Positions 34,773 to 63,978 are shown, counted from the first letter of the stretch. The stretch: DNA of 64,000 nucleotides from an uncultured virus (IMG/VR IMGVR_UViG_3300021376_000011) (IMGVR_UViG_3300021376_000011), one strand, 5' to 3'. Program-made: numbers and translations. The notes: a model not told the origin generated them from the sequence alone.

Positions 34773-35186
34773 ATGGAATATACAAAAGATTTGATATTAG
34801 TTAGGGGTTTACCCGGCTCGGGTAAATCCACTTTAGGTGAGGTCATTCTTTATACCCCAAATAATCCAATGAAACCATTGTCGGCGGATGATTTCTTTAC
34901 AGACAAGGAAGGTAACTACAATTTTGACCCAATAAAATTAAGGGAAGCTCATAACGACTGCCAACAAAGGTGTGCAAATTTGATGATGAATAGCGTCGTA
35001 AGAGTTGTTGTGTCAAATACGTTTACCCAAGAATGGGAAATGGAACCATATTTTGAAATGGCGAAAAGATACGGATATCGAATTCACACTATTGTTGTTG
35101 AAAACAGACACGGTGGTGAAAATGTCCACGGAGTACCCTCTGACAAATTAGAGATTATGAAAAATCGTTTTGAAGTAAAACTCTGA
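34773..35186 (+). CDS. P-loop kinase (AAA_33/polynucleotide-kinase-like)
   Basis: LVRGLPGSGKST, SADDFF, AHNDCQ, VVVSNTF, HGVP. Confidence 0.85.
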   Translation: MEYTKDLILVRGLPGSGKSTLGEVILYTPNNPMKPLSADDFFTDKEGNYNFDPIKLREAHNDCQQRCANLMMNSVVRVVVSNTFTQEWEMEPYFEMAKRYGYRIHTIVVENRHGGENVHGVPSDKLEIMKNRFEVKL

Positions 35187-36265
35187 TAGTTAGGTTACAA
35201 AAATACCATGAGGATGGTTTGTTAATAAAACAAACTCACCCCACAAAAGATTTGTGCATATGGAATTATACCCCAAGAGTACAATACGAATCTTTGTGGG
35301 ACGATATTACTATGCAATGTCGTGGACTCGTTACCAATTCAAAAGGCGATGTAATTGCAGAACCGTTTGGTAAGTTCTTTAACTATGAGGAAGTTATTGA
35401 TAAGGACTTAATTCCATGGGACAGTGAATATGTTCACATTCAAGATAAAATGGATGGTTCTCTTGGTATTCTATTCTTTTACGATGGGGAATGGATTATG
35501 TCAACAAGAGGTTCATTTACTTCTGAACAGTCTATCCGTGGTTTTGAAATTTTAAAATCAAAATACAATTTAAATAATTTTGTAAAAGAGGTTACATACC
35601 TATGTGAAATTATTTATCCTGAGAATAGAATTGTTGTAAATTATAATTGTGAAAAAATCACATTCCTTTCTGTAACAACCCCTGAAGGTGAATTGAACTG
35701 GTACACCGCATGTGCAATTTTTAATTCATCAGGTATTTTGGAAGAAGACGTTGTTGGAAGCACAATGGTAACTTTCAATAAAGAAACATTTGACACATAT
35801 AAGAAACTTAATACATCAAACAGTGAAGGTTTTGTTGTAAGATTTTACCCATCAAATTTTAGAATGAAAATTAAATTTGAGGAGTATGTTCGATTACATA
35901 AAATTTTAACCAATGTGTCAAGTAGAGATATTTGGGAATACCTTAAAGAAGATAAATCATTTGATGAGTTACTTGAAAAAGTACCTGATGAGTTTAACAG
36001 TTGGGTGAAAGAAACTGTTAAAGATTTTGTGGTTCGTTATGAAAATATTGAGAAGGAATATCAATGGATATTCAATAAAATACGAAACACTTATTTTGAG
36101 GCACATCAAAAAGAATGTAACCGACGCGAGTTTGCTGAATTAGCAAAAAGATATAACCACCCATCAATATTATTTAATATGTTGGACGGTAAAGAATATA
36201 AAAGTATAATATGGAAAATATTATACCCACCATATACAAAACCATTTAAAAAAGATGAAATATAA
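35183..36265 (+). CDS. RNA ligase (T4 Rnl1 family)
   Basis: QCRGLV, FGKFFN, DKMDGSLG, TRGSF, EIIYPENRIV, EGFV, KIKF; frame is open back to CTG at 35183. Confidence 0.9.
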   Translation: MIVRLQKYHEDGLLIKQTHPTKDLCIWNYTPRVQYESLWDDITMQCRGLVTNSKGDVIAEPFGKFFNYEEVIDKDLIPWDSEYVHIQDKMDGSLGILFFYDGEWIMSTRGSFTSEQSIRGFEILKSKYNLNNFVKEVTYLCEIIYPENRIVVNYNCEKITFLSVTTPEGELNWYTACAIFNSSGILEEDVVGSTMVTFNKETFDTYKKLNTSNSEGFVVRFYPSNFRMKIKFEEYVRLHKILTNVSSRDIWEYLKEDKSFDELLEKVPDEFNSWVKETVKDFVVRYENIEKEYQWIFNKIRNTYFEAHQKECNRREFAELAKRYNHPSILFNMLDGKEYKSIIWKILYPPYTKPFKKDEI

Positions 36266-36665
36266 AATTTACTTAGATGATGTAAGAACCCCCGTTGATA
36301 AATAAAATTGGGTAGTGGTTCGTTCCTATGATGAATTGGTTCAAAAGATAACCGAGATTGGTTTAGATAATGTTGAGTTGATTTCTTTAGACCACGACTT
36401 GGGTGATAGCGCAATGAAAGAATGGTTACACGGTGTAGTTAAAAACTACGAAATCAACTACGACAATATCACCGAGAAAACAAGTATGGACTGTACCAAA
36501 TGGTTAGTTAATCAGTGGTTGGATGGAAAACCTGTTGTTGATGTGGTTGTACATTCAGCCAACGCGGTTGGGAGTGCTAATATGATGGGGTACATCAATA
36601 ATTATAGACATATCCACAGATTACCCCAAAACTGTGTGAGAGTTCAGTGGGACCATACGGTTTAA
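36255..36665 (+). pseudogene. Cyclic-phosphate-processing receiver domain gene with an in-frame TAA at codon 17
   Basis: ATG 36255 reads MKYKIYLDDVRTPVDK*NWVVVRSYDE...ISLDHDLG...VHSANAVG; stop at 36303-36305. Confidence 0.75.
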
Positions 36666-36748: not shown

Positions 36749-37093
36749 ATGCCACCAAAACTACCTAAAAAACCAAACGATACCGTAATCAAAAAGTTAA
36801 TACTCCAACAGGACTATAATAGCTTTGGTGATTTTTACAATGTTAACAAAGAACTAATTTATCTGACGTTAGTCAACCTCTTTAAAAGTCTTAAAAGAAA
36901 AGATAAAAACAATGTAATTTTAGTGTTAGGCGCTAAGATAAATGGTTTACAATGGGAAACTGAGTTAAAATTTAAAAGAAAAGAATCAATTGTTTTAGTA
37001 AGGGATATTCTACCATTCTTTGAAGGTAACGAAGATTATGAAACTTGTGCTGAAATAACCGATACGTACAATAAAATACTTCAGATTCAATAA
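36749..37093 (+). CDS. Hypothetical protein
   Basis: 114-aa ORF ending in UVR-like EDYETCAEI. Confidence 0.55.
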   Translation: MPPKLPKKPNDTVIKKLILQQDYNSFGDFYNVNKELIYLTLVNLFKSLKRKDKNNVILVLGAKINGLQWETELKFKRKESIVLVRDILPFFEGNEDYETCAEITDTYNKILQIQ

Positions 37094-37147
37094 TAAGATG
37101 ATGATTGATTGATATCACCTAAACGGGTTATATCACTCCGTAATCAC

Positions 37148-37402
37148 TTACTCAGATACTGAGTCGTCTGATTTCTTTTTATGTGAGAACTTGTCTACAG
37201 TATCTGCACCCATTCCAATTGCAGTAATAACCATAACTGCGTTTACTAATTCTTCAGATGGTTTAATGTCACCATGAGAAAAAGAATTTACAGCCATGGT
37301 ACCACAAAGGAATAATGCGCCTAATAGAGCAATTACCGGTTTGATTGAAGTTGACCCTCTTTCATCTTTGAATAGGTCAATAATCCATTTTTTAAAGTTC
37401 AT
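37148..37402 (-). CDS. Small two-TM membrane protein (holin-like)
   Basis: Two hydrophobic segments, charged C-terminus, late motif at 37440. Confidence 0.55.
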   Translation of the reverse strand: MNFKKWIIDLFKDERGSTSIKPVIALLGALFLCGTMAVNSFSHGDIKPSEELVNAVMVITAIGMGADTVDKFSHKKKSDDSVSE

Positions 37403-37537
37403 AGTTGTAATTTAGTTTAGTTTTATTTATTTGGTTTACTATAAATACCTCGGCAATGAAGATTGTTATATATATTTTTTTAAACATTTTGAAATATGAA
37501 ATTTACTTGTTATAATTTATAATAAAAGTTAACAGAT

Positions 37538-37623
37538 GAATAAGAAGCGAAGTTGGTCGATTACATCTGACTTGAAATTAGGTGTACTACAAAGTATCGT
37601 AGGTTCAAATTTTACTCTCTCCG
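37538..37623 (+). pseudogene. Degenerate tRNA-Ser(TGA)
   Basis: Anticodon arm TCTGA-CTTGAAA-TTAGG, long variable arm, T-arm GTAGG-TTCAAAT-TTTAC and 3' TCTCTCCG; the 5' acceptor strand no longer pairs. Confidence 0.6.
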
Positions 37624-37678
37624 ACACAGATGAAAGAGTGGTTCGATTTCCTATAGGGATACAACTAAAAAAGACAAT

Positions 37679-37921
37679 ATGTTAGAAAAAATTTTAGAAC
37701 AATATGCAGATGAGGAAATTTTAATAGCGGATGGATTTGATTCCGCGGTATTAGGAATTGATGAAAACTCTATGAGATTGATTTACTCGGTTGAAAAGTG
37801 TTTAAAGATTCTCATGGACCAAGGTATGGACATGACTGAAGCGGTTGAATATTTTGATTTTAACGTGTCAGGTTCATACATGGGAGAGAAGACACCAATA
37901 TGGTGTGATGATTTATTTTAA
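37679..37921 (+). CDS. Conserved small phage hypothetical protein
   Basis: ADGFDSAVLG...IYS...EAVEYFDFNVSGSYMGEKTP. Confidence 0.7.
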   Translation: MLEKILEQYADEEILIADGFDSAVLGIDENSMRLIYSVEKCLKILMDQGMDMTEAVEYFDFNVSGSYMGEKTPIWCDDLF

Positions 37922-37958
37922 AAAAACTTTTTGTATATTTGTATATACTTATTAAACA

Positions 37959-38060
37959 ATGATGAACTTGGTACACATACAACAAACGTCAAACAACCCG
38001 CTAAGTGGTAATGGGAGAGGTTTGTATTTAAGTAACCCAAGTTCGGATTTTAAGTTGTAA
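37959..38060 (+). CDS. Putative leader peptide (33 aa)
   Basis: MMNLVHIQQTSNNPLSGNGRGLYLSNPSSDFKL*, between the TAnnTTTG promoter at 37934 and a terminator. Confidence 0.5.
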   Translation: MMNLVHIQQTSNNPLSGNGRGLYLSNPSSDFKL

Positions 38061-38090
38061 GTTATACTGAGAGTAAACTCTAACTAATTG

Positions 38091-38130
38091 AACCCGAACT
38101 TTTATTTTTGAAGTTCGGGTTTTTTATTTT
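38091..38130 (+). terminator. Intrinsic terminator/attenuator upstream of the tRNA cluster
   Basis: AACCCGAACTT/AAGTTCGGGTT stem followed by TTTTATTTT. Confidence 0.85.
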
Positions 38131-38206
38131 AAGTCTTTTTTTTGTATAATTGTACAATAGTTCAGATTGAACTGAATTTGTTCTTTGACATGTTGGTGAA
38201 ATTGAT

Positions 38207-38292
38207 GCCGCTGTGTTGAAACAGGTAGACAAGAGAGACTTAAAATTTCTTGGACAGTAATGTCCGTGCCGGTTCGATTCCGGCCAGCGGTA
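38207..38292 (+). tRNA. tRNA-Leu(TAA)
   Basis: GCCGCTG/CAGCGGT acceptor, AGAGA-CTTAAAA-TTTCT anticodon arm, long variable arm, GGTTCGATTCC. Confidence 0.92.
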
Positions 38293-38356
38293 CAAAAATG
38301 GAAAACTCCTCAAATCTACAACTACGGTTATCGTAGAAGGAAATTTCCATTTTAAT

Positions 38357-38428
38357 GGGCCCATAGGTAAAGGGATATACCCTCTCACTTCTAATGAGAT
38401 ATTCCAAGTTCGAATCTTGGTGGGCCTA
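38357..38428 (+). tRNA. tRNA-Arg(TCT)
   Basis: GGGCCCA/TGGGCCT acceptor, TCTCA-CTTCTAA-TGAGA anticodon arm, CCAAG-TTCGAAT-CTTGG T-arm. Confidence 0.92.
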
Positions 38429-38590
38429 CGAATTTAAATGATGTCTCTTTCTATGACAATTTGAACATAAAAGAACACATTTATTAAGTTCATTTTTGAT
38501 TGATTCATCAGACTTCAATCTGAGTTTTGACCAATCAACATCTTTTTCAGAAGGATTTAAATGGTGAAAATCAAAAATGACATATGAACG
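38426..38590 (-). pseudogene. HNH endonuclease C-terminal remnant
   Basis: FDFHHLNPSEK...ELNKCVLLCSNCHRKRH; the first CxxC and the N-terminus are absent. Confidence 0.65.
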
Positions 38591-38755
38591 ATTGAACTTT
38601 TGTTCGTACAGATTGTGGTAATTGGACATGTCATATGAATCCCTCGGGACATAAAAAGGTGGCAAATGCTGTTATCACACAGATGAAATTCAAAGTAAAA
38701 AACTAATATCGCCGATTTAAACGATAATTCATTTTATCGGTTATTTCGACGATAC

Positions 38756-38829
38756 GGTCCCTTAGCTCAGTTGGTCAGAGCACCCGACTCATAATCGGTA
38801 GGTCCACGGTTCAAGCCCGTGAGGGACCA
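38756..38829 (+). tRNA. tRNA with CAT anticodon, probably tRNA-Ile2 (lysidine type)
   Basis: GGTCCCT/AGGGACC acceptor, CCGA-CTCATAA-TCGG anticodon arm; resembles ileX-type tRNAs and lacks initiator features. Confidence 0.85.
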
Positions 38830-38855
38830 CGAGATATTTATATAATAAAAAAATC

Positions 38856-39308
38856 ATGGGAATTGAATTAAAAAAGAAAAAACAACTTATCGAAAGATTA
38901 AACAAAAGACTCCTATCCGAAGCGGAAATGGAATGTCCTAAAGCAACTCAAGATTTAGAGTTAAATACCAATAATAGAGACAAGTCAATAAAAGCGGATT
39001 ATATAAAATATGGTCCACTTAATATTGACGAACCCGGTGATTATTGGGAAATGGTTGCATCTGATTGGAACACCACTGTTGAAGCTGCTAAAAAATCACT
39101 ATGTGGTAATTGTGTAGCATTTGATATATCACCAAGAATGGATGAGTGTATGCCAGGTTCGGTTTCTGATGATAGTGGTAGATTAGGGTACTGTTGGATG
39201 CATCACTTTAAATGTCACTCCGCAAGAACATGTAAAACATGGGCAAAAGGTGGTCCAATTACCGAAGATACGGTGTCCTATGAGTGGCAACAAAAAAATC
39301 AAAAATAA
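38856..39308 (+). CDS. Cys-rich hypothetical late protein
   Basis: LLSEA site, CGNCVAF, GYCWMHHFKCHSARTC; late motif at 38835. Confidence 0.65.
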   Translation: MGIELKKKKQLIERLNKRLLSEAEMECPKATQDLELNTNNRDKSIKADYIKYGPLNIDEPGDYWEMVASDWNTTVEAAKKSLCGNCVAFDISPRMDECMPGSVSDDSGRLGYCWMHHFKCHSARTCKTWAKGGPITEDTVSYEWQQKNQK

Positions 39309-39377
39309 TATCAACATGTGGTCGTACCCTTAACTCCAAAACCTATTAAGGAAATCGTTATGGGAAGACCACTCCAA

Positions 39378-39452
39378 GCGGGAGTAGCTCAGTGGTAGAG
39401 CATCGCCTTGCCAAGGCGAGGGCCGTGGGTTCAAATCCCATTTCCCGCTCCA
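39378..39452 (+). tRNA. tRNA-Gly(GCC), CCA encoded
   Basis: GCGGGAG/TTCCCGC acceptor, CGCC-TTGCCAA-GGCG anticodon arm, GGTTCAAATCC, TCCA end. Confidence 0.95.
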
Positions 39453-39697
39453 AGTAGACCTTAAAAAGGGCCCTTCCGTTGCGTACGAAAACGGCTTGTT
39501 GGGCCCGGGTCTACCTTTTAAGCGAATATCGTATAACCGACATTATCGGTTATATTAAAGACTACTTGGTAGTTATGTGTAATAATTTTCACCAACCCAC
39601 ATCAACCCCACAAAATTACTACACATAACAAGGTGTTACAGTCGCAAGGGTTCGAGCCCCTCACCTTCCGCGGAGTACTTATATATTATAAAATGGT

Positions 39698-40159
39698 ATG
39701 AAAAAATTTAGAACATTGCACGGAACACTCATAACCGACGTTATAGGTTACATCAAAGATTATTTGGTGGATAAAAACGATATTGAAATATTGATTGGTT
39801 CGGATTCACAATCATTTAGTAATTCTAAAACAGTTTACGGGGTGGTTATTGCTCTTTACACAAAAGGTAAGGGTGCTCACGTATTGTGTACTAAAGACAC
39901 AATACCATTTGAAAAAGATACGTCAAGTAGACTAATGACTGAAGTGTGGAAGGCGGTTGAAGTTGCTGAACACTTGAGAAACAATGGTTTACCAAAAGTC
40001 ACTTGGATTGATATTGACCTTAATCCTGACCCAAAATACAAATCAAATAAGGTTTTAAGACAAGCCGTTGGTTTGGTTGAGGGTATGGGGTATAAAGTGA
40101 GATACAAACACGCGGGGGCTATGATGACCTACAGCGCGAATCATTTGGTGAGGATTTAA
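39698..40159 (+). CDS. RNase H-like YkuK (DUF458) family protein
   Basis: ILIGSDSQ, GKGAHV, RLMTEV, IDIDLN, SANH. Confidence 0.8.
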   Translation: MKKFRTLHGTLITDVIGYIKDYLVDKNDIEILIGSDSQSFSNSKTVYGVVIALYTKGKGAHVLCTKDTIPFEKDTSSRLMTEVWKAVEVAEHLRNNGLPKVTWIDIDLNPDPKYKSNKVLRQAVGLVEGMGYKVRYKHAGAMMTYSANHLVRI

Positions 40160-40256
40160 AAATTTTTTTTAATTTTTTTTAAAAAAAACTTTGTTTTTAC
40201 AAAAAGTTTATATATCTTTGTACCATTACAATAAATTACAACATTAATACGACATT

Positions 40257-42329
40257 ATGACAACAAGGAATTTAGTTGCGTTTCAAAAAGGTTTGGTCTG
40301 TTCACCAAACGACGGTCAAGATAATAGAATCGCGGTAGCAACCGTTCAATCCCACTTAATGCAATGGGGTTACATGTTAGACGAAGATGCTTTCTTCGCG
40401 TTGTCCAAATCAGAATTATCGTTTATTCAAAACTTCAATCATGAAGTATTGAATCATTTGAAAAATGTAATGGGTGGTAATCGTAATTACCAACCCCTAT
40501 ATAAGAATTTCCCACAAGAAGTGATGGTTATGTCCGACTTCGAATTATACATGAACGCAATCTTGCATTATTGGAGTAATGGTCAATGGGAACCATCAAC
40601 CCACACTTACGAAAAAGAAATCAAGTTTGAAAAAATTAAATACAACTTGATTAAGTATGGTACCTCTGATAGATTCTCAAAAATTTTCACTGACTTAGTG
40701 TCAATCAACACATCATTAACCCCCCAAGACCTTGAGATTGTTAAGTGGTTTGTATCAAGTGGTGAAACATTGATTTTCCCTGACACAATTCCTTTCAAAG
40801 AGAATTTGTGTACACTTGCGGGAATGGGAATCGAGGGACTTCCAGTAAAGACTTCAACCGACGTGTTAAGAATAGCCGTTCATCTTTCAGGTGGAGACAT
40901 TAGTTTACCTAAAGTTCCTGAAAAGGAAATTAGACTAAACAGATGGTCTACCGATAAAGGAGTAAATCCCGAAAGAGAAAAGTTTAAATTCAAGAAATTC
41001 ACTCGTAAAGAGAGGAAGTACATCTTGAATTTACTTGAGAACACAAACTGTGACCCAAGAGAAATGGTTTTAAGAGACCAACGATGGGTTCGTTTAGGTG
41101 AAATCTTACACCCGGGTGAGTATAAAAACCAATTCCCTAAATCTTTTGATGCGTTCAACAAGATTAGAAACGAGAAAGTAAAATCTTGGTTCTCCCTTGT
41201 AGATGAGGGATTCAAAAAAAGTTTGGAGAATGGTTTGAGAGTATTGTCTCAAAGACCCGGTGAATTCTCTCGTCGATTAGATTGGTTGGTTCGTACATAT
41301 CCACAAGATATTGAAACAATTATGAAATTATTCGGAGAAGCGGTAAAAGGTACATCAAACAAAGTATTGTTTGAGGTTTACACTCACTTTGAAGGTCGTA
41401 CTGAACCTAAAACAAATAGGTCAGTTATGATTAAAGGAGCGAGAAAACGTACCGAATTACCATCACTACAAGCAATCCCTAAAGAGATTGTGGAAACCAT
41501 CCACTCTAAATTATTCGAAACTCTTAGAGATAAGTTTTCGGTAATGGATTCTTTAGGTAACTGTTGGATTGATGAGGAATTAAAAAAGATTCCTTTACCA
41601 ACCAACATGAGAAGTATGAACTTCTCAACTAAACCTACCATCAGAGGTCAACGAGTTCCGCTCGATAACCCCGATGCAAAAGTTATCAGACCATTTATTC
41701 ATTGGATGGATAAACGTGGTTCTGAAGACTTGGATTTAAGTGTTACGTTTGTTGGTGAAAAAGTGTCAGAAGTACTATCTTTCAGTAACTTGAGAGTTGG
41801 TAACTCTGTTCACTCGGGGGACGTGAGACATAGACAGGGTCCTTGTGCGGAGTACATCGACATCGATATTCAAGATGGATTAAATCGTGGATTCAAGTAC
41901 GCGGTTATTGACGTAAGAAACTTCAATGGCGGTAGTTTAAGTTCACTTGAAACATCCTTTGGTATCATGGAGAGAGAACATCCTGAATCAAACACGACAT
42001 GGTTACCTGAGACAATTTCAAATTGTCAATCATTAGAATCTGAGTCGTCAAACACTTTGATTGCAATTATTGACTTAGAAACCAAAGAGTACATCATGTT
42101 GGACATTGATTCAAGTGGTTTTGTAACCGCGAGGAGCGACTTCAATAACACCTTTAAAGTAATTCAACAATACGCTGAATTACCAAAAGTAAGTGTTTAT
42201 GACCTTATTCTTCTACACGTAGAAGGTCGAGGAAAACAAGTTACCCTTGACGAGAATGTGGATACACATTTCAAGTACGAGGACTTCTGTTACTCTTATG
42301 AAGAGACAGGTAAATTGATGGGTGTCTAA
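40257..42329 (+). CDS. Large protein with C-terminal TerD-like domain (resembles the MXAN_6230/SCO0854-type family but lacks the RING)
   Basis: PLYKNFP, FKENL, TSTDVLR, RPGEFSRRLD, then W...DLDLS...HSGD...AEYIDID. Confidence 0.65.
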   Translation: MTTRNLVAFQKGLVCSPNDGQDNRIAVATVQSHLMQWGYMLDEDAFFALSKSELSFIQNFNHEVLNHLKNVMGGNRNYQPLYKNFPQEVMVMSDFELYMNAILHYWSNGQWEPSTHTYEKEIKFEKIKYNLIKYGTSDRFSKIFTDLVSINTSLTPQDLEIVKWFVSSGETLIFPDTIPFKENLCTLAGMGIEGLPVKTSTDVLRIAVHLSGGDISLPKVPEKEIRLNRWSTDKGVNPEREKFKFKKFTRKERKYILNLLENTNCDPREMVLRDQRWVRLGEILHPGEYKNQFPKSFDAFNKIRNEKVKSWFSLVDEGFKKSLENGLRVLSQRPGEFSRRLDWLVRTYPQDIETIMKLFGEAVKGTSNKVLFEVYTHFEGRTEPKTNRSVMIKGARKRTELPSLQAIPKEIVETIHSKLFETLRDKFSVMDSLGNCWIDEELKKIPLPTNMRSMNFSTKPTIRGQRVPLDNPDAKVIRPFIHWMDKRGSEDLDLSVTFVGEKVSEVLSFSNLRVGNSVHSGDVRHRQGPCAEYIDIDIQDGLNRGFKYAVIDVRNFNGGSLSSLETSFGIMEREHPESNTTWLPETISNCQSLESESSNTLIAIIDLETKEYIMLDIDSSGFVTARSDFNNTFKVIQQYAELPKVSVYDLILLHVEGRGKQVTLDENVDTHFKYEDFCYSYEETGKLMGV

Positions 42330-44100: not shown

Positions 44101-44127
44101 CTATCTTTGTCTTGTTCTTTGACTTAT

Positions 44128-44703
44128 GGGGGTGTATGGAATTGATTGGCGTTGATATGGTAAATGGGCACGTAGTCGGATGTCATCTACGACTTTAATC
44201 CACGGTGGTAAATTTTAAACGGCAACGTTTATAACCAAATGGAAGTAGCAGGTCTTCTTGCGACTTCTAAAGTTGCAGCCTAATTGGTTGTAACTAACGG
44301 GTCGACGGACAGATAACCTTGGAACAGAAGTCCTTGTAGGGTGTGGTTTCTATCCTAAAAGAAACAAAGTGGAAGATTAGTTCTCAGTAAACCGAACCAC
44401 TTTAAAATAAGGGAATTGTGAATTTCGGAGTATTAGAAAATACTGTCCTAAACGTGTAGTCCATTTATTGTATTGCGAGCAAGACGCGGGTTTTTAATCG
44501 AGCCCCTTCATATCGTGAGATATGTCGAAAATCGGATGAACTCAGGGGAAGTCTTTTAGATAATCCTGAGCCAAGCCTGATAGGAACAGGAAGGTGCAGA
44601 GACTAGTGGGTGATAGACGCTTCTATCGTAATACCACATTAGCGTCCGACATCTCGTTGAGATGATGATATAGTCCAATAATTGTCGAAACCCGCCACCT
44701 CCA
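44128..44703 (+). ncRNA. ssrA: tmRNA, interrupted by a group I intron
   Basis: GGGGGTG/CACCTCC-A acceptor with G3:U70; tag ORF 44221-44283 GNVYNQMEVAGLLATSKVAA*; T-arm GCGGGT|TCGAAACCCGC restored by removing 44492-44684. Confidence 0.9.
44492..44684 (+). mobile_element. Group I intron without an ORF (IC3-like core) in the tmRNA T-loop
   Basis: Core elements AATCCTGAGCCAAG, AAGGTGCAGAGACT and GATATAGTCC; exon ends in U, intron ends in G; IGS GCCC pairs the exon GGGU and intron TCGA can pair the 3' exon TCGA. Confidence 0.88.
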
Positions 44704-63070: not shown

Positions 63071-63978
63071 TATAAAAGTTTATCTAAGTTTATTAATTCA
63101 TCAACAAATAGTTTTGAATAAGAATCTAATCTTGAATTTTCCTCATACCATTTTCTACCATTTTGACCAATAAATTCTACCAATTTCGGTTTGTTTTTTA
63201 ATTCTTCAAATTTTTCAATATAAGCGTTCGCTAATCTGGGAAAATCAGACAAATCATCACAATCAACTTTAGCATAATGATAATTAGGAATCAATTTATT
63301 ATGATATTGAATAGCTAATTCAGGTCTTATAACCGCACAACCCAAACCCATACCGTCAATTAAACGACCTGATATTTCTACCACTGAGTTTACGTCCATA
63401 ATGATAGAATATTGTGAAAGTTCTATCATAAATTCATCACCCGTTAACCTATCGGGATAAAAAATGTTAAACCTATCATCAAAATGTCTCAAGTATTCCC
63501 TAAACGGGGCATTACCACCTCTTAAAAACAATTTTTCGGGTATTTTCCTATCGACCCTATTGTATAACTTTTCAATTTCAATCATACCACTTTTAAAATA
63601 TGTTGACATGGTACACGGTGTGTAGACATATTCCAAACAATTTTTTTTATACCCCTCTTCATCGGTACAATCAAATGGTATCATTGGTTTATAATGTACG
63701 ACATCAAAATTAATGCCCACAGGTTGAAACACATCAACACAATTATCTAAATCCCAACCCCAAGGCGATTCGCCCTTTGTTATATAATACCCCCTATCGC
63801 AATACGATATTATCATAAACTTTCCCGTTTTTGGATTTTTTATGACAGGTGTGGCAATACCATATGCGGGGCAACAACAATCTTTGTTTATTAATCTTGT
63901 ATTAATTGGTATGAATTCAATTTCTGGATATTTTTTAATTAAACTTCTAAGAATTTCTATGGGACATATTTGATGCAT
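63070..63978 (-). CDS. Glycosyltransferase-like protein (CAP10/GT90-like C-terminus)
   Basis: KLFLRG, LIPNYHY, FIGQNGRKWYE. Confidence 0.55.
   Translation of the reverse strand: MHQICPIEILRSLIKKYPEIEFIPINTRLINKDCCCPAYGIATPVIKNPKTGKFMIISYCDRGYYITKGESPWGWDLDNCVDVFQPVGINFDVVHYKPMIPFDCTDEEGYKKNCLEYVYTPCTMSTYFKSGMIEIEKLYNRVDRKIPEKLFLRGGNAPFREYLRHFDDRFNIFYPDRLTGDEFMIELSQYSIIMDVNSVVEISGRLIDGMGLGCAVIRPELAIQYHNKLIPNYHYAKVDCDDLSDFPRLANAYIEKFEELKNKPKLVEFIGQNGRKWYEENSRLDSYSKLFVDELINLDKLL

Follow-up and report, generated by a model that had tools for sequence, protein, structure and literature searches.

The amino-acid attenuators of enterobacteria include trpL, hisL, leuL and pheL as well as the multivalent thr and ilvGMEDA leaders. 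In all of them, the trp attenuator of E. coli included, the antiterminator is the less stable of the two structures, and which one forms is decided kinetically. A leader peptide also controls phenylalanyl-tRNA synthetase in E. coli, through the pheST (pheM) attenuator. In T-box riboswitches (RF00230) no ribosome takes part: they bind the tRNA itself and control synthetase and amino-acid genes. The Bacteroid-trp motif is a candidate attenuator of Bacteroidota. Leader-peptide attenuation has also been suspected in flavobacteria, as stated in the excerpted text of one report (PMC9723704). Here we describe an element in a 64,000-nucleotide stretch of DNA from an uncultured virus (IMGVR_UViG_3300021376_000011), the whole of which is called the window below. 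The element lies immediately before phage tRNA genes, and its sequence indicates that it is probably a ribosome-mediated, multi-codon leader-peptide transcription attenuator that senses tRNA supply. The codon content of its leader is the strongest evidence for this reading.

An earlier note on this DNA had proposed a promoter, a 33-codon leader and four complementary segments with the topology of the trp attenuator. The promoter box, the open reading frame (ORF), the four segments and the terminator are all present, at the following positions (in nucleotides, nt):

37912..37941, + strand: promoter P1, of Bacteroidota type, with a -33-like TTTA at 37912-37915 and a -7 box TATATTTG at 37934-37941.
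37959..38060, + strand: leader ORF with an ATG start, 33 codons plus TAA (stop at 38058): MMNLVHIQQTSNNPLSGNGRGLYLSNPSSDFKL.
37959..37971, + strand: segment 1, with its core GAACTTGG at 37964-37971; it extends over two ATG codons and pairs with segment 2.
38037..38049, + strand: segment 2, consisting of CCAAGTTCGG (38037-38046) and a following ATT; its partner is either segment 1 or segment 3, and its sequence is similar to that of segment 4.
38053..38085, + strand: linker hairpin between segments 2 and 3 in predicted folds, with the stop codon in its 5' side.
38090..38129, + strand: intrinsic terminator, made up of segment 3 (38091-38101), a 9-nt loop, segment 4 (38111-38121) and a T tract.
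38093-38101, + strand: core of segment 3, CCCGAACTT, the 5' arm of the terminator.
38111-38119, + strand: core of segment 4, AAGTTCGGG, followed by the T tract TTTTTTATTTT.

A repeat search of the window recovered all three proposed pairings, with complementarity of 8/8 for 1:2, 11 nt at 91% for 2:3 and 11/11 for 3:4. Segment 1 had been placed over the start codons, which holds for the extended segment (37959-37971) but not for the core, since the core reaches only into the second ATG, of which it covers the final base. A terminator scan returned a 13-pair stem at 38090-38122 with a T tail, and the free energy of the terminator stem alone was -17.6 kcal/mol. When the 191 nt of the window element were folded as RNA, the minimum energy was -48.7 kcal/mol, compared to -34.8 on average for shuffled sequences (z = -3.4), and none of the 200 control shuffles folded as well; the fold combines a long 1:2 hairpin with the terminator. 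The G+C content of the window is about 32%. An exact 8-nt complement of the terminator 5' arm occurred in the upstream 130 nt in only 56 of 20,000 mononucleotide shuffles, so that this complementarity, like the fold, exceeds chance. A search for the terminator stem GTTCGGGTTTTT as a repeated family found a single occurrence within the window.

The Bacteroidota promoter consensus is TTTG/TANNTTTG, with G at -5, in the excerpted text of two reports (PMC6847099; PMC9723704). Because the box TATATTTG fits this consensus, transcription from P1 is predicted to begin at about 37946, which would leave 13 nt of leader ahead of the ATG. The start-codon rule in the excerpted text of PMC6847099 asks for A at position -3 and for A-rich sequence ahead of the start codon, and the leader has both.

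Relatives of this phage carry 24-27 tRNA genes in two arrays, with a gene for a protein of 80 amino acids (aa) and the element between them:

Array behind the element, 12 species: Leu-taa, Arg-tct, Pro-tgg, Asn-gtt, Leu-tag, Tyr-gta, Ile-tat, Met-cat, Gly-gcc, Gly-tcc, Gln-ttg and Ser-gct.
Upstream array, 14 species: Ala, Phe, Lys, Val, Trp, Arg-acg, Cys, His, Ile-gat, Met, Thr, Asp, Ser-tga and Glu.

The proposal of an attenuator in front of a tRNA cluster was therefore right in that the element directly precedes tRNA-Leu, but in relatives it stands between two arrays and not ahead of the whole cluster. We compared the leader codons with the array behind the element, using simple wobble rules and a codon background of 69 crudely called window genes (19,023 codons). 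The relatives' downstream array reads 25 of the 33 codons of the window leader, compared to a background of 38.5% (binomial p = 1.5e-5), and not one of 16,746 33-codon gene windows reached 25 matching codons. All 12 species of the array are sampled, each by one to five leader codons; a single gene window among the same 16,746 does this. Eleven further variants of the leader gave 21-27 matching codons and 11-12 species, the weakest being variant L134 (21/34, p = 0.005). The matching codons were concentrated before segment 2: 23/27 codons matched there, compared to 2/6 from segment 2 onward. The other two frames contain stops and showed no enrichment of matching codons. The TTA and AGA codons to which the earlier note had drawn attention are present in the leader, but alone they prove little, because they dominate the Leu and Arg codons of window genes (57% and 68%, respectively).

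Relatives have a second unit, absent from the window, ahead of their first array. It was observed at L155:390-590, at L153:330-530 and in six other variants, and comprises a promoter, a leader, a linker hairpin and a terminator. We refer to its leader as leader A and to that of the window element as leader B. The leader A unit contains a TATCTTTG box and an ORF of 29-31 codons (e.g. MIRSTHTMSFTICSKWAEVADICMSRGVL), which was open in 8/8 variants with a sole indel of 6 nt. The start codon lies in the base of a long hairpin, the terminator has the form CCTCGGG...CTCGAGG plus a T tract, and segment 2 (CCCGAGG) pairs with the terminator 5' arm. The leader A segments differ in sequence from those of the window element (CCCGAGG / CCTCGGG). 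tRNA-Ala begins a few bases after the T tract, with no promoter between.

Leader A sampled 14/14 species of its own array in 8/8 variants, as did 0 of about 17,000 gene windows, and 22-27 of its 29-31 codons matched that array compared to a background of 51.7%. Its 2:3 helix carries a compensatory change, C-G to U-A, in L153; 68/500 shuffles did as well. Within one phage (G002), leader A has 20 codons read only by the upstream array and 3 read only by the downstream array, while leader B has 6 and 25, respectively (Fisher p = 1.1e-6). Among 200,000 random partitions of the tRNA species, 79 matched leader B as well as the real arrays do and 0 matched both leaders. Support for the leader as a sensor of the tRNAs that follow it is thus far stronger than the earlier note could see, and comes from both sides: leader B holds codons for all 12 array species of relatives, and a second, unrelated leader matches the other array.

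To these codon results can be added the conservation of the element. Relatives were gathered by means of the neighbouring 80-aa gene, two DNA patterns and a peptide-based scan, which yielded 18 distinct element variants that were then aligned. A 16-mer scan gave 29 loci, of which 8 were unrelated chance matches and were dropped; the peptide-based scan added one new variant only, L134. The variants come from uncultured freshwater phages in lake and river metagenomes, and two of the contigs (288 and 311 kb) are rated 92-93% complete. Named phage records held no close relative of the window; matches to them were confined to tRNA and HNH pieces.

The ORF was open in 18/18 variants, at lengths of 30-34 codons. 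Two indels fall within the shared part of the ORF, one of +3 and one of -3 nt, and ORF lengths differ by whole codons; indels in the linker have other lengths. In 18/18 variants the distance from the segment 2 core to the stop codon was 2-14 nt, and that from the stop codon to segment 3 was 25-41 nt. The trp-type four-segment topology is thus real and conserved, and the expectation that it would recur ahead of tRNA genes in relatives was borne out: all 18 distinct variants, on other contigs, are able to form 1:2, 2:3 and 3:4. A linker hairpin was predicted in 18/18 variants despite differing sequence, with arms such as UAAG/CUUA or AGAGU/ACUCU. P1 in relatives takes the form TTTG-N19-TATCTTTG, and an exact TAnnTTTG was found at P1 in 20/20 distinct variants. 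Directly behind the element, ARAGORN called tRNA-Leu(taa) in the 9 scanned relative loci except L013, and elsewhere the 5' part of the tRNA was seen in the flank. At L013:3500-4460, where tRNA-Leu(taa) was uncalled by ARAGORN, the next tRNA lies about 900 nt further on, and the region may be an insertion or an intron.

The alignment also bears on the pairings themselves. For the terminated form, consisting of 1:2 with its inner helices plus 3:4, 97.1% of 630 cells paired, compared to 22-47% when partners were slid. Two of its pairs change on both sides, and 0/500 shuffles reached its covariation score; several one-sided changes keep pairing through G-U, and there are also breaks, such as C-G to A-G in L012 and L108. 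The 1:2 helix is present in the consensus fold as well, with one compensatory pair (U-A to A-U in L012 and L108) in addition to wobble-keeping changes. The 3:4 terminator was kept in all variants, with 98% of cells paired and energies of -12.0 to -17.6 kcal/mol. With segments 1 and 4 left out, 2:3 formed in 18/18 variants (6-10 pairs, -9.8 to -16.9 kcal/mol), was extended by pairs flanking the core and enclosed the linker hairpin; 94.9% of its cells paired, compared to 2-59% when slid. The segment 2 core, GTTCGG, is invariant across variants. Segment 2 copies segment 4 over 11/12 nt in most variants (AAGTTCGGAGTT vs AAGTTCGGGTTT), and L134 has the same A-to-T change in both segments.

Ribosome position was represented by a masking model, in which -12 to +14 nt around the ribosomal P site were masked and the nascent RNA was folded up to 38110; neither the sterics of the ribosome nor pausing of the polymerase enters the model. 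For P-site positions in codons 1-24, the 2:3 helix formed with 6-10 pairs, and from codon 25 onward it could not form. The earlier note had supposed that a slowed ribosome covering segment 1 frees segment 2. In the model such a ribosome does free segment 2, but it is not the only one to do so: a P site anywhere in codons 1-24 suffices.

These observations, on sequence features and their conservation, codon match and folding potential, suggest a mechanism. In it we infer that the promoter is used, that the leader is translated, in what kinetic order the RNA folds and in which direction regulation runs. Transcription would begin at P1, at about 37946, and a ribosome would load on the AUG at 37959 before segment 2 is synthesized. 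If decoding is fast, the ribosome would reach the stop at 38058 and cover segment 2, or would depart and let 1:2 re-form; the 3:4 terminator would then form and the transcript would end near 38125. If the ribosome lags within about the first 24 codons, segment 2 would be free as segment 3 emerges, and 2:3 would form, stacked on the linker hairpin. This would block the terminator, and RNA polymerase would read into the tRNA genes. With no ribosome, 1:2 would form first, followed by termination. The leader would thereby act as a multi-codon test strip: shortage of any tRNA of the array would raise transcription of the array, a negative feedback on tRNA supply.

The region behind the terminator holds the following features:

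38123..38152, + strand: promoter-like unit P2, a direct repeat of P1, with TTTA at 38123-38126 and a box TATAATTG at 38145-38152 that is one base off consensus.
38180..38196, + strand: conserved 17-nt motif GTTCTTTGACATGTTGG, 10 nt before tRNA-Leu and present in 20/20 variants.
38207..38293, + strand: tRNA-Leu (anticodon taa), the first gene behind the element (ARAGORN, Rfam).
38357..38429, + strand: tRNA-Arg (anticodon tct) (ARAGORN, Rfam).
38756..38830, + strand: tRNA-Met (anticodon cat) (ARAGORN, Rfam).
39378..39452, + strand: tRNA-Gly (anticodon gcc), the last of the four window tRNA genes (ARAGORN, Rfam).

The 32 nt that hold P1 recur after the terminator, at 38123-38154, and the -33-like part of P2 falls in the terminator T tract. 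From its sequence we infer that P2 may have promoter function. The motif TAnnTTTG is not enriched across the window (96 matches compared to 106 expected, 12/96 of them intergenic), so the motif alone is no evidence; its conservation at its place in the element is. The 14-nt P1/P2 repeat was weak as a general promoter word, with 13 matches at up to 2 mismatches compared to 7.1 expected, and 3/100 shuffles reached 13. An HNH endonuclease ORF lies on the - strand at 38426-38665, between tRNA-Arg and tRNA-Met, and has 72-74% DNA identity to HNH genes of Escherichia phages.

Several results weigh against attenuation as the function of this element. The codon test was framed after the sequences had been seen, with simple wobble rules and crude ORF calls, and the variants are mutually related, hence not independent. 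The window's phage keeps 4 of the 12 downstream tRNA genes, and when its leader was compared with these four tRNAs, the match (9/33 compared to a background of 15.9%; p = 0.069) was no better than chance. The same phage has lost the upstream array together with its leader, leaving only scraps of tRNA-Ser and tRNA-Glu at 37551-37678.

P2 is a further difficulty. Six of the seven sequence-level features of an attenuator were found: a promoter and short ORF with a usable start, an intrinsic terminator, the 2:3 pairing, the 1:2 pairing, control codons, and a stop that masks segment 2 and not segment 3. The exception is that no promoter should stand between the terminator and the regulated genes, a feature that is typical but not strictly defining. 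Since P2 lies between the terminator and tRNA-Leu, the attenuator is probably not the sole route into the tRNA genes, and through P2 the tRNAs may be made without read-through. TAnnTTTG was exact at the P2 site in 18/20 distinct variants, with a single-base departure in the window and in L122.

The pairings have weak points as well. In L134, 1:2 is weakened (-17.0 kcal/mol, two mismatches). No pair of 2:3 changes on both sides, and 500/500 shuffles reached its observed covariation score; with its six core pairs invariant, covariation speaks neither for nor against 2:3. This helix is reduced to the 6 core pairs in L012 and L108 and has an A-A mismatch in the L086 group. With the full terminator, 3:4 always won at equilibrium, even under the ribosome mask, and without a ribosome and before segment 4 was made, the minimum-energy fold already contained 2:3. 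For both of these reasons the switch would have to be kinetic, with 1:2 forming first and 2:3 before segment 4 is made.

One alternative is that the locus is a small gene or RNA standing on its own, with its own promoter and with a terminator that insulates P2. Its 33-aa peptide, or an RNA of about 180 nt, would act in trans, and 2:3 would be a by-product of two similar stems. P1 and P2 are direct repeats and P2 is conserved, which would make promoter, ORF and terminator a complete unit, and covariation gives 2:3 no support. Some constraint on the peptide is indicated by the ratio of nonsynonymous to synonymous divergence (pN/pS), which was 0.41 for leader B and 0.42 for leader A, compared to 0.17 for the neighbouring 80-aa gene, at synonymous divergences (pS) of 0.27, 0.29 and 0.56, respectively. 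In addition, an 18-nt block, AGTGGTAATGGGAGAGGT, was invariant at all codon positions in 17/18 variants, suggesting a role at the level of the RNA or the peptide. Both leaders thus show constraint at synonymous sites, where divergence is half that of the 80-aa gene, and their peptides are under less constraint than a normal protein. The substitution pattern fits constraint on codon identity and RNA pairing over constraint on a folded protein, as for a translated regulatory leader. We consider a unit of this kind unlikely: it does not account for the correspondence between the leader codons and the array that follows, for the like correspondence between an unrelated second leader and the other array, or for the end of the matching codons at segment 2. 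The second element, moreover, has no promoter between its terminator and the first tRNA. The 33-aa peptide had no match in Pfam or PHROGs, and the RNA had none in Rfam.

A second alternative, which we judge equally improbable, retains the coupling to translation but gives the switch another output or the opposite sign: it could govern processing or decay of the tRNA precursor, occlude P2, or lower tRNA synthesis upon stalling. The codon match links decoding to the arrays without giving a sign, and with the -33-like part of P2 in the terminator T tract, read-through could interfere with P2. The conserved 17-nt motif before tRNA-Leu and tRNA-Phe would also be compatible with such an output. This motif has only two exact copies per relative genome of about 300 kb, one before each of these two tRNAs. 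It was tried as a sigma-70 -35 box (TTGACA) and rejected, since no -10 box follows and two exact copies per genome do not make a general promoter. Two things speak for termination control over these other outputs. The geometry is that of classical attenuation in 18/18 variants, with the stop just after segment 2 and the terminator 5' arm common to the antiterminator, and the second element has no P2 with which to interfere.

Further occurrences of this motif were observed. As GTTCTTTGACATRTTGG it precedes tRNA-Leu in the window and also tRNA-Phe in relatives. A near copy at 44114-44130 (region 44102-44130) comes after a TATCTTTG box, and the roughly 350 nt behind it contain no ORF. In G005, the tRNA model matches two stretches of 121 nt at a distance from the arrays, G005:C1:64240-64360 and 65985-66105 (- strand; 37.3 bits), which are near a copy of the motif with one mismatch at 63879-63895.

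No known leader or tRNA-sensing family of Rfam (Trp_leader, His_leader, Leu_leader, Thr_leader, Bacteroid-trp or T-box) was detected at the element by cmscan of 37000-40500 at E up to 10, and the matches that did fall over the element, Pseudomon-1 (17.2 bits) and L20_leader (17.1 bits), were at chance level only. Segment 2 was also considered as a degenerate tRNA or T-arm remnant, prompted by its GTTCG; ARAGORN and Rfam lent this no support. That the element is a ribosome-independent RNA switch binding tRNA or a protein, T-box-like or working by protein-mediated antitermination and with an incidental ORF, is very improbable: a nucleotide-invariant block in the apical 1:2 hairpin and the position of the elements in a tRNA and RNA-repair neighbourhood would suit it, but no Rfam family was found, the ORF is open in 18/18 variants with frame-keeping indels, and the codon match is confined to the ORF frame.

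The genes upstream of the element in the window look like an RNA-repair set (34773-36665). They encode an AAA_33/polynucleotide-kinase-like protein (34773-35186), an Rnl1-like RNA ligase (35219-36265) and a cREC_REC protein (36315-36665). Between this set and the element, positions 37403-37678 are the remains of the deleted upstream tRNA array; the match to relatives ends at 37484. Within these remains, 37551-37623 is similar to tRNA-Ser(tga) (73%) and 37640-37678 to the 3' end of tRNA-Glu, and a probably spurious ORF of 49 aa occupies 37536-37685. The four tRNA genes of the window are also the only ones in G001, the nearest virus record (134 kb, 43% complete). Metatranscriptome contigs from relatives (three river runs and one possible RNA run) cover tRNA genes and parts of neighbouring genes and nothing in 37924-38175, a gap that proves nothing. 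Further downstream in the window, Rfam identified a group I intron at 44482-44694 on the + strand (68.8 bits).

A further possibility is put forward tentatively. The two codon-matched attenuators could together form a sensor for phage counter-defence. When the host cuts or withdraws tRNAs, for example by anticodon nucleases, ribosomes would stall on the matching codons and the replacement block of tRNAs would be switched on, acting together with the genes just upstream for a kinase-like protein and an RNA ligase (34773-36265). The leader RNA released at the terminator might have a role in trans as well.

The reason that phages carry tRNA genes, and the way in which the timing and dose of these tRNAs are set, are open questions. 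If the attenuator operates as proposed, the phage would measure decoding speed codon by codon and feed the result back on tRNA synthesis, and the element would be a natural, compact sensor of tRNA availability. A full-text search confined to open-licence PubMed Central papers and bioRxiv, judged by abstracts, found no published account of leader-peptide control of tRNA genes.

Compared to the enterobacterial leaders, the element has the same parts: a promoter, a short ORF with control codons, a 1:2 hairpin, a 2:3 pairing that uses the terminator 5' arm and a 3:4 terminator. It differs from them in its targets, which are tRNA genes and not biosynthetic enzymes, and in its codons, which address 12 tRNA species where those leaders have a run for a single amino acid or a few. 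Here both segment 1 and segment 2 lie within the ORF, the setting is a phage with Bacteroidota-type promoters and a second promoter after the terminator, and no Rfam leader resembles it. The pheST (pheM) attenuator is similar in that a leader peptide adjusts the amount of one part of the decoding machinery to the speed at which its codons are read; in pheST, however, one amino acid and a protein gene are involved, whereas here there are many codons and tRNA genes. With T-box riboswitches the element shares the sensing of tRNA status through a choice between terminator and antiterminator, but it has no T-box match, and the evidence here points to translation. The candidates in flavobacteria, as described in the excerpted text of PMC9723704, and Bacteroid-trp represent the same kind of control in the same host phylum, judging by promoter type; they precede bacterial amino-acid biosynthesis operons and not phage tRNA genes. 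The element would thus extend leader-peptide attenuation in what is sensed (tRNA supply instead of amino-acid supply), in the number of control codons (12-14 instead of one or a few) and in the genes controlled (RNA genes of phages instead of bacterial operons).

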